Origin: Phenylobacterium haematophilum | GTDB lineage: Bacteria; Pseudomonadota; Alphaproteobacteria; Caulobacterales; Caulobacteraceae | Direction: 5' to 3' | DNA: 24,000 bases | Assembly: GCF_014196295.1 (NCBI RefSeq) | Contig: NZ_JACIDK010000001.1 | Span: forward strand, 204,785-228,784 | In this document: positions 1 through 21,480 of the stretch, in pieces | Layout of the letters: each line of letters begins with the position of its first letter | Position numbering within the stretch: the first letter of the stretch is position 1 | Program-made: the position numbers and the translations under genes | Notes under the pieces: generated by a model | What the model was told of the DNA's origin: nothing | What the model saw: only the letters and a program-made list of their open reading frames with translations | Databases searched by the model: none

Positions 1-1204
1 CAGGTTCGCTGATCTCTTCCTCGGTGTCGGGATCGACCAGGCGGCTGAAGAAGCGGTCGTTGAGCGGATAGGCCCAGTCGAAGCCCGGCGCGCCGACTCG
101 CGGGAAGTAGGTCGCCCGCTCGCCATGGCCGGGAATGTCGTCGGCCGTGCCGCACAGCGACATGCCCTCGTTGGAGCCGAAATAGTTGACGATCTCGACG
201 CCATAGCGGTCGTGGAAGGCGCGGATCATCGTCTCCGACAACGGCGCCGAGCCCGAACCGATAGCCCGCAGCCGGCTGAAGTCGACACCCTCCAGCAGCT
301 TGTGATCGTGGGTCAGCAGGTTCAGCACCGCCGGCGGGGCGACGGTGTAGTCGATGGGGTGCTCGCGCATCTGCGCCAGCATCACCGCCAAGTCGAACGG
401 ATGGTGCTGGATCAGCGTCCCGCCGATCAGCAGCCAACCGGCCAGCGCCGTCGAGACCCCGCCCATATTAACCATCGGAAACGGGTTCAGCAGTCGCGCG
501 CCCATCGACAGCCGGCCGGCGGCGACCACGCCCTGGGCCATGATCAGCCACTCGTTGTGGCTGCGCGGCACGCCCTTGGGCTCGGCCTCGGTGCCGGAGG
601 TCCAGCAGATCGTCGCCACGTCGTCGGCGGTGATCGCCGCGGCGTCGGCGGCGTGCTTCGCCGCGGCCAGCTGCTCCGACGTGACGCCGCTCATGGCCGC
701 GTCCAGATCCACCGCGGCCTCGGCCGCGCCGACGCTGAAGATGGTCTGCAGCGCCAGGCCGCGCAGCTGCGCCACATGGTCGTGGCCGCCGATGACGGCG
801 CCCGTGATCGCCGCCTTGGCGCCGGTGCGGCGCACGATGCTGGAGAGCTCGTTCTCGCGGTACTGAACCGGCGCAGGCGTGACGATGATCCCGAGCTTGA
901 AGGCGGCCAGATAAGCGAGGGTCAGTTCGACCACGTTGGGCAGCTGCACCAGCAGCACGTCGTCCTTCCCCAGGCCCGCGCCGTGCAGCGCTGCGGCCAG
1001 GCAGTCGACCGCCTGGCCCAGCTCGCGCCAGGTCAGCCGGCGCGGATCGCGGCCGATGACGGCCTGCGTGTTCGGTGGATCGATCAGCGCGTCGTCGCCC
1101 GGCCGCTCGGCGACATGACGGTCCAGCAGGTCGACCATTGTGGTCTCGCCCCACCAGCCCTGGGCGCGGTACGCGGCGATGTGGTCGGCGGGAACAAGGA
1201 TCAT
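1..1204 (-). CDS. AMP-dependent acyl-CoA synthetase/ligase (ACS1), C-terminal end cut by window edge
   Basis: Absent from the ORF track because it runs off the left edge. My translation of the minus strand from ATG 1204..1202 gives MILVPADHIAAYRAQGWWGETTMVDLLDRHVAERPGDDALIDPP...DDVATICWTSGTEAEPKGVPRSH...IGSGSAPLSETMIRAFHDRYGVEIVNYFGSNEG. This has an adenylate-forming motif I variant (TSGTEAEPKG). GGAG lies 6 nt upstream, and the start is 13 nt downstream of the thiolase stop, so the two are likely co-transcribed. Confidence 0.85.
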   Translation of the reverse strand, partial: MILVPADHIAAYRAQGWWGETTMVDLLDRHVAERPGDDALIDPPNTQAVIGRDPRRLTWRELGQAVDCLAAALHGAGLGKDDVLLVQLPNVVELTLAYLAAFKLGIIVTPAPVQYRENELSSIVRRTGAKAAITGAVIGGHDHVAQLRGLALQTIFSVGAAEAAVDLDAAMSGVTSEQLAAAKHAADAAAITADDVATICWTSGTEAEPKGVPRSHNEWLIMAQGVVAAGRLSMGARLLNPFPMVNMGGVSTALAGWLLIGGTLIQHHPFDLAVMLAQMREHPIDYTVAPPAVLNLLTHDHKLLEGVDFSRLRAIGSGSAPLSETMIRAFHDRYGVEIVNYFGSNEGMSLCGTADDIPGHGERATYFPRVGAPGFDWAYPLNDRFFSRLVDPDTEEEISEP

Positions 1205-1216
1205 CGTCGGCTCCGA

Positions 1217-19188: not shown

Positions 19189-19257
19189 CTCTCGTCACGG
19201 GCCACAGAGCCCGGTCGATCGGCGCCGGAGCGCGCCGCGCAAACACGGGGGAAACTC

Positions 19258-21480
19258 ATGACCAGGCAAGCGCTCATCCTGTTGGCTAGCTGCGCCGTCG
19301 GGGCGCTTTCAACGGGGACTGCGGCGGTCGCCCAGACCGCGCCGGCGGCAAATTCGCGGCCCGTCGCGGTCGAGGAAGTGATCGTCACCGCCGACCGTCG
19401 CGAACGGAAGCTGCAGGACGTCCCCTCGGCGATCAGCGCGATCACCGAGCAGGCGCTGGAACGCAGCCGCATCGTCGATCTCAGCTCGCTTTCGACCACC
19501 GTGCCCTCGTTCTCGATGACCGAGAGCTCGGCCCTGGGCAAGGAGCTTAGCATCCGCGGCGTGACCAGCGTGCGGATCCTCGACGCGACCGCCGAACCGT
19601 CGGTGGGGATGTTCGTCGACGAGGTCTATCTCTCGCGCATGGGCTCCGCCTTCACCGACTTCTACGATCTGGAGCGGGTCGAGGTGATCCGCGGCCCGCA
19701 GGGCGTGCTGCTGGGCAAGAACGTGGTTGGCGGCGCGATCAGCGTCATCACCGCCAAGCCGAAGTTCGATCCCTCGGGCGCCACCACCATCTCGTTTGGC
19801 AACTACGACTCGGTGATGGCCAACGGCTACGTGACCGGGGCCCTGACCGACGACCTGGCTGGCCGCGTCGCCTTCCAGGTCCGCAACCGCTCGGGCTACA
19901 GCAAGAACGTCGTGCTGGGCGGCGACATGGACAACCTGAAGTCCTATCAGGGGCGCGGCGGGCTGCTCTATCGCGCGCCGGACGCCGACCTCCAGGTTCT
20001 CGCGACCTTCGACTACGGCTCGGACGAGACCGACGGCACGGCCCGGGTTATGACCGACGATCCCTTCGCCGCCGGCACGGGCGCGGTCGCCGCCTGGCGC
20101 GCGGCCCGCGGCCTCGGCCCGCGCGACGCCACCAGCCCGCAGCATGAGTACAGCCGCCGCATCACCCGCGGCGCGATGCTGCGCGTCGACTGGGGCGTGT
20201 TCGAAGGCGCCAAGCTGACCTCGATCACAGGCTATCGGTCGTCCAAGGGCGTGATGGGCTTCAACCAGCTGGGGATCGGCTCGCCGCCCGGCCTTGCCGA
20301 CACCTTCTATTCGACCAGCGAGAAGCCCGAGACGATCAGCCAGGAACTGCGCCTGGTGTCGGACAATCCGGACAGCCGCTTCGACTGGATCCTCGGCGCC
20401 TTCCACCAGAGCGACGATGTCACCCGCTACGATTCCAACGTCGCCACAACGTCGACCACCATCCCGGCGCTCAGCGGCACCTTCCTCTACACCAACAAGG
20501 CCGACCTCAAGACCACCGCCGTCTTCGGTCAGATCGGCTACAAGTTCACCGACCAGCTCAAGGCCACGATCGGCCTGCGCTACACCATGGACGACAAGAG
20601 CGGCACGCGTCTGGCCCAGTGCCTCGAGGACGGCGGCGATGGCCTCTGCGTGGCGGCCCTGGTGTTGGCCAAGGGCCAGTCCTTCACCGTCAACTACGGC
20701 AAGGATTGGAACGCCCTGACGCCGCAAGGCATCATCGAGTACCGACCGAACGACAACGTCATGATCTACGGCAGCGTCGCCAAGGGCTTCAAGGGCGGCG
20801 GCTGGGACCACCTGCCGTCGACCGCCGCGGCCGCCGCCATCGGCTACGACCCGGAAAAGGCCACCAACTACGAGATCGGCGTGAAGTCGGACCTGTTCGA
20901 CCGCCGCGTGCGCCTGAACCTGGCCGCCTTCAAGATGGACTACAAGGACCTGCAGTCCCAGCAACTGGTCCTGGAGTGCCTCTGCCTGATCACCAGCAAC
21001 GCCGGCACGGCCGAGATCAAGGGGCTCGAGGCCGAAGGCACCTGGGCGGTCAGCGAGGACCTTACCCTGACCGCATCGGGCTCGTGGCTCGACGCCAAGT
21101 ACAAGAACTTCGTCGACGGCGCGGGCGTGGTGTTCTCGGGCAACCGCATCCAGCGCTCGCCGGAATACAAGTTCGACATCGGCGCCAACTACGTGTTCGG
21201 CATCGGCGAGTGGGACCAGGCCTTCAGCCTGCAGACCAACTACACCAAGCAGGGCAAGAGCTACTGGACCCCGGCCAACACCTTCGCCCAGGAGCCCTTC
21301 GGCCTGTGGGACGCCTCCCTGCGCGTCCAGCCGCCCGGCGCGGCCTGGTCGGTCACGGTGTGGGGCAAGAACCTCACCGACGAGCTCTACGCCGTCGCGG
21401 CCCAGACTTTCTTCGGCGACCTGATGAACTACTACGCCCCGCCCAAGACCTACGGCGTGGACCTGAAGTACGAGTTCTAG
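19258..21480 (+). CDS. TonB-dependent receptor
   Basis: 740 aa. Signal peptide ...TGTAAVAQ. TonB-box-like EEVIVTA. Plug region DVPSAISAITEQALERSRIVDLSSL. Beta-barrel body ends in the terminal YGVDLKYEF. Confidence 0.95.
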   Translation: MTRQALILLASCAVGALSTGTAAVAQTAPAANSRPVAVEEVIVTADRRERKLQDVPSAISAITEQALERSRIVDLSSLSTTVPSFSMTESSALGKELSIRGVTSVRILDATAEPSVGMFVDEVYLSRMGSAFTDFYDLERVEVIRGPQGVLLGKNVVGGAISVITAKPKFDPSGATTISFGNYDSVMANGYVTGALTDDLAGRVAFQVRNRSGYSKNVVLGGDMDNLKSYQGRGGLLYRAPDADLQVLATFDYGSDETDGTARVMTDDPFAAGTGAVAAWRAARGLGPRDATSPQHEYSRRITRGAMLRVDWGVFEGAKLTSITGYRSSKGVMGFNQLGIGSPPGLADTFYSTSEKPETISQELRLVSDNPDSRFDWILGAFHQSDDVTRYDSNVATTSTTIPALSGTFLYTNKADLKTTAVFGQIGYKFTDQLKATIGLRYTMDDKSGTRLAQCLEDGGDGLCVAALVLAKGQSFTVNYGKDWNALTPQGIIEYRPNDNVMIYGSVAKGFKGGGWDHLPSTAAAAAIGYDPEKATNYEIGVKSDLFDRRVRLNLAAFKMDYKDLQSQQLVLECLCLITSNAGTAEIKGLEAEGTWAVSEDLTLTASGSWLDAKYKNFVDGAGVVFSGNRIQRSPEYKFDIGANYVFGIGEWDQAFSLQTNYTKQGKSYWTPANTFAQEPFGLWDASLRVQPPGAAWSVTVWGKNLTDELYAVAAQTFFGDLMNYYAPPKTYGVDLKYEF

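Follow-up and report, generated by a model that had tools for sequence, protein, structure and literature searches.

A candidate regulon built around an alkene-cleaving oxygenase of the carotenoid cleavage family in Phenylobacterium haematophilum

A 24,000-nt stretch of the Phenylobacterium haematophilum genome (contig NZ_JACIDK010000001.1, positions 204,785 to 228,784; hereafter the window, numbered from its first letter) carries a group of predicted uptake and coenzyme A (CoA)-dependent degradation genes around an oxygenase of the carotenoid cleavage oxygenase (CCO) family. The divergent promoters of these genes share a 20-nt box, and the oxygenase, its partners and the box recur together in several classes of Proteobacteria. 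Genes were separated from shadow open reading frames (ORFs) by third-position and codon-position G+C and were then scanned against Pfam and NCBIfam profiles. The refined starts match independent gene calls on metagenome contigs with the same proteins (including L081 and L082; contigs and loci are cited by such numbers), and the closest database proteins are from Phenylobacterium. All the gene classes named in a preliminary description of this DNA were found in the window by profile annotation, and the motif I strings it gave for three CoA ligases, TSGTEAEPKG, SGGSTGRPK and TSGTTGPSK, are exact in ACS1, ACS2 and ACS3, respectively. Scans of the whole window for sigma-70 promoters and intrinsic terminators gave counts no higher than in shuffles and were uninformative on operon boundaries.

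The CCO gene (15767-17239, + strand) encodes 490 amino acids. Its start, about 30 codons downstream of the longest ORF start, was fixed by 490-residue homologs. The protein scores 414 bits against PF03055 (RPE65; cut-off 27) and covers profile positions 2-467 of 469. Four iron ligands, H179, H227, H291 and H475, are invariant in an alignment of 18 orthologs and align to the histidines of CCD1 and LsdA. The best match in the Protein Data Bank (PDB) is a CCD1-type carotenoid 9,10-dioxygenase (232 bits, 1e-67), followed by LsdA (184 bits, 3e-53), VP14 and, lower down, ACO (1e-41) and NOV1. The top curated match is NF052295, the 8'-apo-carotenoid 13,14-cleaving dioxygenase, at 241.5 bits against a cut-off of 675; the models for lignostilbene dioxygenase (LSD; NF053778, 234 against 800) and NOV2 (NF053780, 194 against 650) come next. 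The oxygenase lies below all three curated cut-offs and so is not within any of these well-described pathway families; placement in such a pathway, with its other genes elsewhere, would have counted against the preliminary description. In LSD, Tyr101 and Lys134/135 bind and activate the stilbene 4-hydroxyl. When the CCO is aligned with LsdA (6ojr) using HMMER, Tyr101 and Lys134 fall on Ala112 and Tyr149. The stilbenoid or lignin-derived substrate offered earlier as an option is disfavored by the absence of this phenol-activating pair. No signal peptide was read in the sequence at the CCO N-terminus. From these sequence features, the CCO is assigned to an unnamed clade, predicted to be cytoplasmic and of the type that acts on non-phenolic alkenes.

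To follow the neighborhood in relatives, the alignment of 18 orthologs was used to obtain 80 CCO-anchored loci from GTDB species genomes; 597 of the 600 pattern matches listed encoded a relative, so that there are at least 597. A reciprocal set of 80 metagenome contigs was anchored on the thiolase ThlA, giving 160 loci in all. Forty-one of the 80 CCO loci have at least 8 kb on both sides of the gene (full-flank loci). Neighborhoods were compared by tblastn with the window proteins and by clustering all ORFs of the loci de novo. CCO identity is 63-86% among the relatives listed, which come from Caulobacterales, Sphingomonadales, Kordiimonas, Maricaulis, Woeseiaceae, Zhongshania, Spongiibacteraceae, Bermanella and Betaproteobacteria.

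A set of genes recurs with the CCO across Alpha-, Gamma- and Betaproteobacteria: a FabK-like protein of the nitronate monooxygenase (NMO) family, an acyl-CoA ligase, the thiolases ThlSCP and ThlA, a DUF1295 protein, a TonB-dependent receptor (TBDR) and a tandem HxlR regulator. Among the 41 full-flank loci, the tandem HxlR gene is present in 30, ThlSCP in 27, a TBDR in 25, NMO in 23, ThlA in 22, ACS1 in 19 and DUF1295 in 15, and 19 of them have at least four of five core partners. The ThlA-anchored contigs show the same gene neighborhood, often with a second CCO (about 42% identity) directly upstream of ThlA and an aldehyde dehydrogenase (ALDH) gene. Co-conservation with the oxygenase, which the preliminary description expected, therefore holds in several proteobacterial classes and is the same when the loci are anchored on the thiolase. 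In sphingomonads, NMO, CCO, ACS1, ThlSCP and ThlA form an operon in one direction, with stop-to-stop ORFs that overlap or lie 3 nt apart; in L016 the tightly packed order is NMO-CCO-ACS1-ThlSCP-ThlA-ALDH-lipocalin. Brevundimonas has a near-complete set of the window genes within 21 kb.

Two further observations concern these loci. The second paralog, CCO-B (38-43% identity to the window CCO), lies directly upstream of ThlA-ALDH in many relatives (L129:8502-9968, L101, L152, L046, L050, L052 and L072), and in L129 both paralogs are found within 21 kb. CCO-B keeps the four histidines, lacks the stilbene Tyr/Lys pair and scores 283 bits against the NF052295 cut-off of 675. Two CCOs in one cluster, as many relatives have, are in keeping with a substrate that has several double bonds. 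Separately, a gene of the serine beta-lactamase family (esterase-like) lies directly upstream of the NMO-CCO operon in L014 (7482-8933), L016 (7483-9045) and two more sphingomonad loci, which could point to an esterified substrate.

The preliminary description had reported a shared 18-bp box and argued from it that the genes act together. The box is real: the degenerate pattern TTCRWWAATGMAAGY has 4 matches in the window against 0.07 expected. It is an AT-rich, non-palindromic 20-nt element, wAGTyTnnTwATGmAAGTnA, in which AAGT occurs twice, 14 nt apart, as a direct repeat. A 20-nt position weight matrix (PWM) finds 9 distinct sites, all of them intergenic, and intergenic DNA makes up 13% of the window. 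The shuffled window gives 0.07 PWM matches at the threshold, and leave-one-out scores of the real sites are 15.8-25.3 bits. Five of the six spacers that hold a box are divergent (ThlA/DapB-like, ThlSCP/SDR1, NTF2/NMO, ACS3/CCO and MFS/TBDR) and the sixth is the co-directional gap between SDR1 and SDR2. About 10 transcription units, mostly divergent pairs, carry the box.

Box 1 (AAGTCTTGGAATGCAAGCTA; 2436-2455, +; PWM score 26.2 bits) lies 65 nt from the ThlA start and 25 nt from the DapB-like ATG. Box 2 (CGGTTCGTAAATGCAAGTCA; 5408-5427, +; 28.8 bits) is 14 nt upstream of the SDR1 ATG and 51 nt from the ThlSCP start. Box 3 (TAGTCTTTATATGAAAGCTA; 6291-6310, -; 22.8 bits), in the SDR1-SDR2 gap, was outside the training set, and the site is kept in L001 and L092. 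The NTF2/NMO spacer has box 4a (AAGTTCGATTATGCAAGTAA; 11948-11967, +; 30.9 bits), which is kept in L001, L002 and L092, and box 4b (AAGTTGCGATTTGCAAGTCA; 12006-12025, +; 20.3 bits), also outside the training set. Box 5 (CAGTTTCAAAATGAAAGTGA; 15626-15645, +; 31.6 bits), in the ACS3/CCO spacer, is 122 nt upstream of the CCO ATG. Three sites share the MFS/TBDR spacer: box 6a (AAGTATCAAAATGCAAGCTA; 19115-19134, +; 31.8 bits), the weak box 6b (19143-19162, -; 16.1 bits), which has an equivalent in L001, and box 6c (CAGTTCATTAATGCAAGTCT; 19171-19190, +; 29.3 bits), 68 nt upstream of the TBDR ATG. Several boxes end 14-25 nt before an ATG, so an operator overlapping the transcription start would fit. 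The PWM scan of the window placed no box near the TetR gene, in the 9.4-11.1 kb segment or near the right-hand housekeeping genes. Generic repeat finding in the window returned coding-sequence look-alikes only and missed the box.

The same box is found well outside the genus. The window-derived PWM has 90 matches in the 80 CCO loci, compared to 3 in shuffles; the strict IUPAC form has no match in these loci, and the PWM was required. Eleven sphingomonad loci have one site, AAGTATCGTTATGCAAGTCA, about 66 nt upstream of the operon, whose first gene is NMO. The box lies 60-80 nt upstream of CCO in gammaproteobacterial loci, among them those of Woeseiaceae, Zhongshania and Bermanella, and the Maricaulis and Kordiimonas loci have 4 or 5 sites. 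Orthologous oxygenase operons are thus preceded by the same box in Sphingomonadales, Caulobacterales, Woeseiaceae, Cellvibrionales-type and other Proteobacteria, and the box is older than the genus Phenylobacterium. That the box is found at all the divergent promoters of the cluster, and again ahead of the oxygenase operons in distant relatives, bears out the earlier argument that the genes act together.

The gene most often linked to CCO encodes the tandem HxlR protein, a single chain of 320-350 amino acids with two HxlR winged-helix domains (PF01638 stretches). Examples are L043:5598-6557(-), L060:11521-12576(+) and L092:16768-17838(+), and about 40 other loci have the gene. The gene is missing from the window; in L092, the closest relative (84-87% identity), it lies about 5 kb past the point that corresponds to the window's left edge. 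The gene set extends past coordinate 1, and in L092 ACS1 is followed by an acyl-CoA dehydrogenase, a second TonB receptor and the tandem HxlR gene, then by PRC-barrel and Kdp genes. L092 also has boxes before the acyl-CoA dehydrogenase gene and in the spacer between the second receptor and HxlR. From this gene order and the boxes beyond ACS1, the regulon is about 27 kb long and the window misses its last 5-6 kb. The nearest curated models of the tandem HxlR protein are RrpB and RrpA, with scores below their cut-offs. Judged by this linkage, the box is most likely the operator of the tandem HxlR protein. Since the box is non-palindromic, a pseudo-dimeric single-chain HxlR fusion would suit such an asymmetric site. 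HxlR-family proteins sense electrophiles and aldehydes. TetR was considered as the main box-binding regulator and rejected: L001 and L092 have all the boxes but no TetR gene, and no box lies at the TetR promoter.

Three dissimilar acyl-CoA ligases are encoded. ACS1 (1-1204, -; Pfam AMP-binding 195 bits) is truncated by the window edge, with the N-terminal 400 or so of its 560 residues in the window and the C-terminus beyond it; the full 560 residues are found on contig L081. ACS1 orthologs (about 43% identity) adjoin CCO in 32 of the 80 loci. The nearest models to ACS2 (7927-9423, +) are PRK12406 and the bile-acid-CoA ligase BaiB, both below cut-off, and its identity is 85% in L001 and L092 and 61-66% in Brevundimonas. 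ACS3 (13915-15540, -) is nearest to PRK06155, also below cut-off, and is 70-87% identical in Phenylobacterium, Brevundimonas and one Sphingomonadaceae genome.

The two thiolases are of different types. ThlSCP (4128-5357, -; Pfam Thiolase_C_1) is an SCP2/SCP-x-type thiolase that passes NF004936 (599 bits, cut-off 375), has SCP2-thiolase relatives in the PDB and has a complete set of motifs (Cys109, HDCF328 and GHP377). It is the enzyme gene most common beside CCO, being found in 46 of the 80 loci. Thiolases of the SCP-x/SCP2 class handle 2-methyl-branched 3-oxoacyl-CoAs. ThlA (1217-2371, -; Pfam Thiolase_N/C) has the classical thiolase fold and best matches FadA Rv0859 of Mycobacterium tuberculosis in the PDB (3e-67). 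The NCBIfam thiolase models are below cut-off for ThlA (best 276 against 514), and the classical tetrad (Cys89, Asn316 of NEAF, His348 of GHP and Cys378 of CxG) is incomplete. In a residue-level alignment to Rv0859, ThlA keeps the nucleophile Cys89 and His339, and has Met307 for the NEAF Asn and Thr369 for the acid/base Cys. Alphaproteobacterial orthologs keep such substitutions, with Met for the Asn and Thr, His, Ala or Ser for the Cys; orthologs of this subfamily are in L004, L007, L008, L015, L016, L029, L049, L064, L071, L078 and L079. The more distant thiolases at the ThlA position in gammaproteobacterial loci are canonical.

The NMO-family protein (12083-13000, +), a predicted FMN protein, was named as an NMO-family flavoenzyme in the preliminary description. 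That membership stands in Pfam (PF03060, 81 bits, cut-off 28), with only profile positions 104-268 of 331 matched, but the protein is closest to FabK enoyl reductases and not to true nitronate monooxygenases. Six of its top seven PDB matches are FabK or enoyl-ACP reductases (4iql, 1.5e-31), and the other (3bo9) was deposited as a putative nitroalkan dioxygenase; named nitronate monooxygenase structures match only from 2e-13. The FabK equivalog TIGR03151 is not reached (109.7 bits, cut-off 453), making the protein FabK-like and not FabK. By homology it is probably an NAD(P)H-dependent enoyl-thioester reductase. A precedent is IpdC, an NMO-family enoyl-CoA reductase in steroid ring degradation.

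The remaining enzymes are predicted reductases, dehydrogenases and small accessory proteins. Two short-chain dehydrogenases (SDRs) follow each other: SDR1 (5441-6262, +; adh_short_C2, 204 bits), a classical FabG/glucose dehydrogenase-like member with 81% identity in L001 and L092, and SDR2 (6333-7091, +), of the PRK08264 subfamily, which passes NF006118 (310 bits, cut-off 279) and has orthologs of 53-69% identity in 16 CCO loci. The DUF1295 membrane protein (7103-7930, +; 232 bits) belongs to the clan of steroid 5-alpha-reductase and ICMT and has an additional, weaker Pfam match to Steroid_dh. It is a probable membrane C=C reductase by family, and its gene lies directly beside CCO in many loci (for example L026, L034, L046, L054, L073 and L078). 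NTF2-like protein 1 (11137-11514, -) starts with a 4-nt overlap of the stop of the gene upstream, which encodes NTF2-like protein 2 (11511-11903, -). Proteins 1 and 2 score 26.6 and 29.5 bits with the limonene-1,2-epoxide hydrolase profile LEH (PF07858, cut-off 24) but higher, 54.7 and 38 bits, with SnoaL_2, and protein 1, which is related to ketosteroid isomerases, has a weak TIGR02096 match. The DapB-like gene (2480-3502, +; Pfam DapB_N and DAP_DH_C) encodes an NAD(P) oxidoreductase resembling 2,4-diaminopentanoate dehydrogenase (NCBIfam Ord, 94 bits, cut-off 400), with native amine dehydrogenases and DapB as PDB relatives, and occurs in 7 CCO loci. Co-directional with it is a gene for a 179-residue protein (3572-4111, +) with no Pfam or NCBIfam match and no relative of at least 50% identity in the 160 loci. 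This ORF is called as a gene on L081 and L082 and turned up only in the lineage of the window.

Two divergent genes encode the predicted uptake proteins. The transporter of the major facilitator superfamily (MFS; 17680-19056, -; MFS_1, 141 bits) is of the anion:cation symporter type, and its nearest NCBIfam models are galactonate, aromatic-acid and 4-hydroxyphenylacetate (4-HPA) symporters, all below cut-off. It is presumed from its family to be an inner-membrane importer. Its identity is 81% in L001 and about 52% in Brevundimonas. The TBDR of the outer membrane (19258-21480, +; Plug and TonB_dep_Rec_b-barrel) is 82% identical in L001; the receptors found beside CCO in the full-flank loci are often non-orthologous.

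Some parts of the window do not belong to the unit. The preliminary description placed it at 1-21480, a range that holds most of the unit and also includes the foreign segments 9424-11136, 12997-13914 and 17330-17575. The first of these (1.7 kb, from ACS2 to NTF2) has genes for a 146-residue predicted membrane protein (9498-9938), an Arg/Pro/Ala-rich product (ORF 10102-10539, of very high first-position G+C) and a DUF6886 protein (10540-11100). It is boxless and absent from the syntenic loci L001 and L092, where ACS2 adjoins the NTF2 gene. The second, between NMO and ACS3, has the TetR gene (12997-13572, -; identified in the Pfam and NCBIfam scans) and a 57-codon alpha/beta-hydrolase relic (about 13640-13810, minus strand; MLPIVFIPGLLCDERLW...CGHLPAIEQPDE). 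The NMO-ACS3 gap is only about 100 nt in L001 and L092, and the absence of TetR and the relic from both marks a lineage-specific insertion. The third, between CCO and MFS, is an 82-codon ORF (17330-17575, -) with a GGAGGA ribosome-binding site and a signal-peptide-like N-terminus, MRLVALTAVLGLLAMGTASA. No counterpart of TetR, DUF6886, the 146- and 179-residue proteins, DUF1428 or ORF 17330-17575 was found in the 160 loci. All three segments are lineage-specific inserts and are not part of the unit.

The right flank (21481-22986) has a possible ORF of 121 codons (21674-22039), a DUF1428 gene (22047-22400) and a gene for a 136-residue protein of no assigned family (22485-22895), followed by phosphoenolpyruvate (PEP) carboxylase, which directly follows the TonB receptor in L001. 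Close relatives also differ inside the cluster. In L001 and L092 the SDRs are separated by a SnoaL_4 gene, and in L092 ThlA is preceded by a metallo-beta-lactamase-rhodanese gene; DUF1295 between SDR2 and ACS2 and the DapB-like and 179-residue genes between ThlSCP and ThlA are specific to the window in this comparison. The word "island" used earlier was a misnomer. G+C is 64-75% along the whole window, tRNA scanning and an Rfam scan at the gathering thresholds found nothing in it, no integrase or transposase domains are present, and the chromosomal flank, PEP carboxylase, is the same in L001. The cluster is chromosomal and not mobile.

We propose that these genes form a regulon around an alkene-cleaving CCO whose substrate is, with moderate confidence, most likely a carotenoid-derived or other isoprenoid polyene. 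The TonB receptor would bring the substrate across the outer membrane, and the anion-symporter-type MFS protein would carry it across the inner one. In the cytoplasm, the four-histidine Fe(II) CCO would cut a non-phenolic C=C bond to give carbonyl products, and aldehydes would be oxidized to acids by the PaaN-type aldehyde dehydrogenase found in the operon of relatives and not in the window. The three dissimilar ligases would make CoA esters of different fragments. The FabK-like reductase, the two SDRs and, in relatives, the acyl-CoA dehydrogenase would adjust the oxidation state, and the SCP2-type thiolase and the atypical ThlA would shorten the chains. Cyclic or oxygenated ends may be processed by the NTF2-like proteins, the SDRs, the membrane DUF1295 reductase and the DapB-like oxidoreductase. 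An isoprenoid polyene is favored because of the relatives of the oxygenase, its missing phenol-binding residues, the two CCO paralogs in relatives, the methyl-branch-type thiolase and the accessory proteins for hydrophobic ligands.

Several findings weigh against this proposal. Two of the canonical catalytic residues are missing from ThlA. Neither the window nor the recurrent neighbors gave a crotonase or MaoC hydratase, so that a full beta-oxidation cycle is not encoded, and the window has no aldehyde dehydrogenase. The ALDH in the operons of relatives (L016:15586-17310 and the cluster 10 loci L003, L011, L015, L023, L052, L064 and L072) passes PaaN_2 (603 bits, cut-off 579). PaaN_2 is a phenylacetate-pathway enzyme that normally acts on a CoA-bound semialdehyde, so the order of steps may differ from the one given above. 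The MFS type suggests an anionic substrate and not a neutral carotenoid. The CCO-linked TonB receptors are mostly non-orthologous between orders (about 28% identity), and none of the five core partners is within 10 kb of CCO in 7 of the 41 full-flank loci. Finally, of the two CCOs of Sphingopyxis alaskensis assayed by others, either of which may belong to this clade, one showed no carotenoid cleavage (PMC5133782).

With an MFS of the anion type and a PaaN-type ALDH, the substrate could also be an acid that is joined to CoA first, or an alkene that is not isoprenoid, and the next most probable explanation builds on these two proteins. The regulon would then serve to degrade a different alkene, for example an unsaturated acid (aliphatic or alicyclic), a polyene of the polyketide or oxylipin kind or some other lipid from plants or algae, which would enter as an anion and be converted to a CoA ester ahead of the oxygenase step. 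The ligases and the acyl-CoA dehydrogenase are nearest to models of cyclohexanecarboxylate, bile-acid and short or cyclic acyl-CoA enzymes, all below cut-off, and the CCO fits no characterized clade, both of which agree with such a substrate. However, characterized CCOs all act on carotenoids and apocarotenoids or on phenolic alkenes of the styrene or stilbene type (PMC5133782; general knowledge), and the best solved relative here is a carotenoid 9,10-dioxygenase. Methyl-branched chains are suggested by the SCP2-type thiolase, and polyenes by the two CCO paralogs per cluster in relatives. We consider a non-isoprenoid substrate possible but doubtful. Abscisic acid, with its enone ring and dienoic acid side chain, was weighed as one such substrate and kept only within this alternative. 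It is not favored, since the known bacterial intermediates (dehydrovomifoliol and a C11 acid) can be reached without cutting an alkene and the route has no known genes.

Another explanation is that the cluster handles the cell's own carotenoids, in turnover or in making an apocarotenoid-derived signal or lipid, and does not serve exogenous nutrition. Many of the hosts (Sphingomonadales, Brevundimonas and Erythrobacter-type genera) are generally known as carotenoid producers, the CCO appears cytoplasmic and a lipocalin-like protein is present in relatives. This is unlikely given that a TonB receptor and an importer-type MFS are in the same box regulon, with a TBDR adjoining CCO in more than half of the full-flank loci, and that carbon recovery is indicated by the thiolases and the several CoA ligases. 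The flanks showed no crt genes, and Woeseiaceae, Zhongshania, Bermanella and Comamonas, which are not generally known for pigments, have the cluster as well.

A lignin-related pathway, with a lignostilbene- or isoeugenol-type dioxygenase and CoA enzymes for phenylpropanoid side chains, is more improbable still. LsdA is the second-best solved relative of the CCO, the LSD score is close to that of the apo-carotenoid model, and sphingomonads degrade lignin dimers that they import through TonB receptors and MFS proteins (PMC12997858). Against these points, the LSD and NOV2 scores are far from their cut-offs, Ala and Tyr replace the phenol-binding pair, which CCO-B also lacks, and no O-demethylase, aromatic ring-cleavage or vanillin-type genes were found in the window or among the recurrent neighbors. 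Known LSD routes also do not use CoA (PMC12997858). Lastly, unrelated operons might lie together here by chance and share no function. Close relatives vary in whether they have DUF1295, SnoaL_4, the DapB-like gene and TetR, and several inserted genes are unrelated to the cluster, both of which might suggest such an arrangement. It is very improbable given the box shared by every divergent promoter against 0.07 matches expected, its conservation across classes, the co-conservation in two independently anchored sets of loci and the end-to-end packing of the sphingomonad core genes in one direction.

The proposed isoprenoid-polyene regulon was compared with known systems. The plant CCD1-type 9,10(9',10')-dioxygenases (9luz/9m6z/9m3e) and maize VP14 (3npe) have the RPE65 fold and the four-His iron site in common with the window CCO and align over nearly its full length; the window enzyme is distant from them, differs in its active-site loop motifs (LSTFYQCGEGY), is bacterial and lies in a CoA-dependent cluster. 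The bacterial enzymes NACOX1 (Novosphingobium), MtCCO Rv0654, SaCCO (Sphingopyxis alaskensis) and Synechocystis ACO are of the same family. For none of these four is a catabolic pathway, regulon or defined neighborhood assigned in the literature searched, and the window CCO, at 241 bits, is well below the equivalog cut-off of 675. In M. tuberculosis, Rv0913c, annotated as a CCO-family protein, adjoins Rv0914c, annotated as an SCP-x-type thiolase, which would be a like pairing of a CCO with an SCP2-type thiolase. No functional data for Rv0913c or Rv0914c were found in the literature searched. Bacterial carotenoid oxygenases have been characterized only as isolated enzymes, including SaCCO from Sphingopyxis alaskensis, whose genus carries this cluster (PMC5133782). 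The lignin-dimer catabolism of sphingomonads through LSD, NOV1 and NOV2 likewise has a catabolic CCO-family enzyme in Alphaproteobacteria, with parent compounds entering via a TonB receptor and an MFS protein (PMC12997858). It differs in having the Tyr/Lys pair and in leading to aromatic aldehyde and vanillate routes, whereas the enzymes downstream here are CoA-dependent and include thiolases.

The SCP-x/SCP2 beta-oxidation of pristanic acid and of bile-acid and steroid side chains is alike in its thiolase, with HDCF, Cys and GHP, and in its CoA ligases, SDRs and, as in relatives of the window, acyl-CoA dehydrogenase. In contrast to it, no hydratase or MFE-type enzyme, racemase or DUF35 partner was found here, and the pathway would be initiated by an alkene-cleaving oxygenase. 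The module for steroid rings C and D (HIP; FadD3, IpdC, IpdF and FadA6) resembles the cluster in its CoA ligase, NMO-family reductase, SDR and thiolase; further similar features here are the ketosteroid-isomerase-like NTF2 proteins and the steroid-5-alpha-reductase-like membrane protein. Unlike the kst and HIP clusters, the window has no KshA/KshB, KstD, HsaA-D, IpdAB or EchA20 among its Pfam and NCBIfam assignments, and its proteins are far below the cut-offs of the NCBIfam steroid models FadD3, CasG, CasI and steroid thiolase. Steroid, beta-ketoadipate, ibuprofen and diterpenoid-type clusters were rejected as matches, their signature oxygenases being absent from the window. The HxlR/DUF24 regulators (HxlR, YodB, HypR and RrpA/RrpB) have HxlR-type winged-helix domains in common with the cluster-linked regulator; in the latter, two domains are fused, and the associated element, a putative operator, is a non-palindromic 20-mer with an AAGT...AAGT direct repeat. 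The parts are known families, and their assembly, the operator and the regulator are undescribed in the literature searched; no published description of any of them was found in full text.

A bolder version of the proposal, which we offer tentatively, is that this is the first recognizable bacterial pathway that mineralizes carotenoid-derived polyenes, present in hundreds of proteobacterial species. It would employ one or two non-phenolic CCOs, possibly acting on CoA-tethered intermediates, together with an SCP2-type and a catalytically altered thiolase for shortening methyl-branched fragments, and a single-chain, two-domain HxlR protein acting at the 20-nt operator would respond to aldehyde or enone products.

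Carotenoids are among the most abundant natural pigments, and no bacterial route from them, or from what their cleavage yields, to central metabolism was found in the full-text literature searched. Whatever the substrate, the cluster provides new leads: an unnamed CCO clade with at least 63% identity across classes, a thiolase subfamily without the acid/base cysteine, a fused two-domain HxlR regulator and a putative operator conserved across classes. If the proposal is true, it would supply a complete candidate gene set, a conserved operator and a candidate sensor for the bacterial breakdown of carotenoid-derived polyenes. With culturable carriers in Sphingopyxis, Brevundimonas, Phenylobacterium and Zhongshania, the recycling of pigments by bacteria would become testable.

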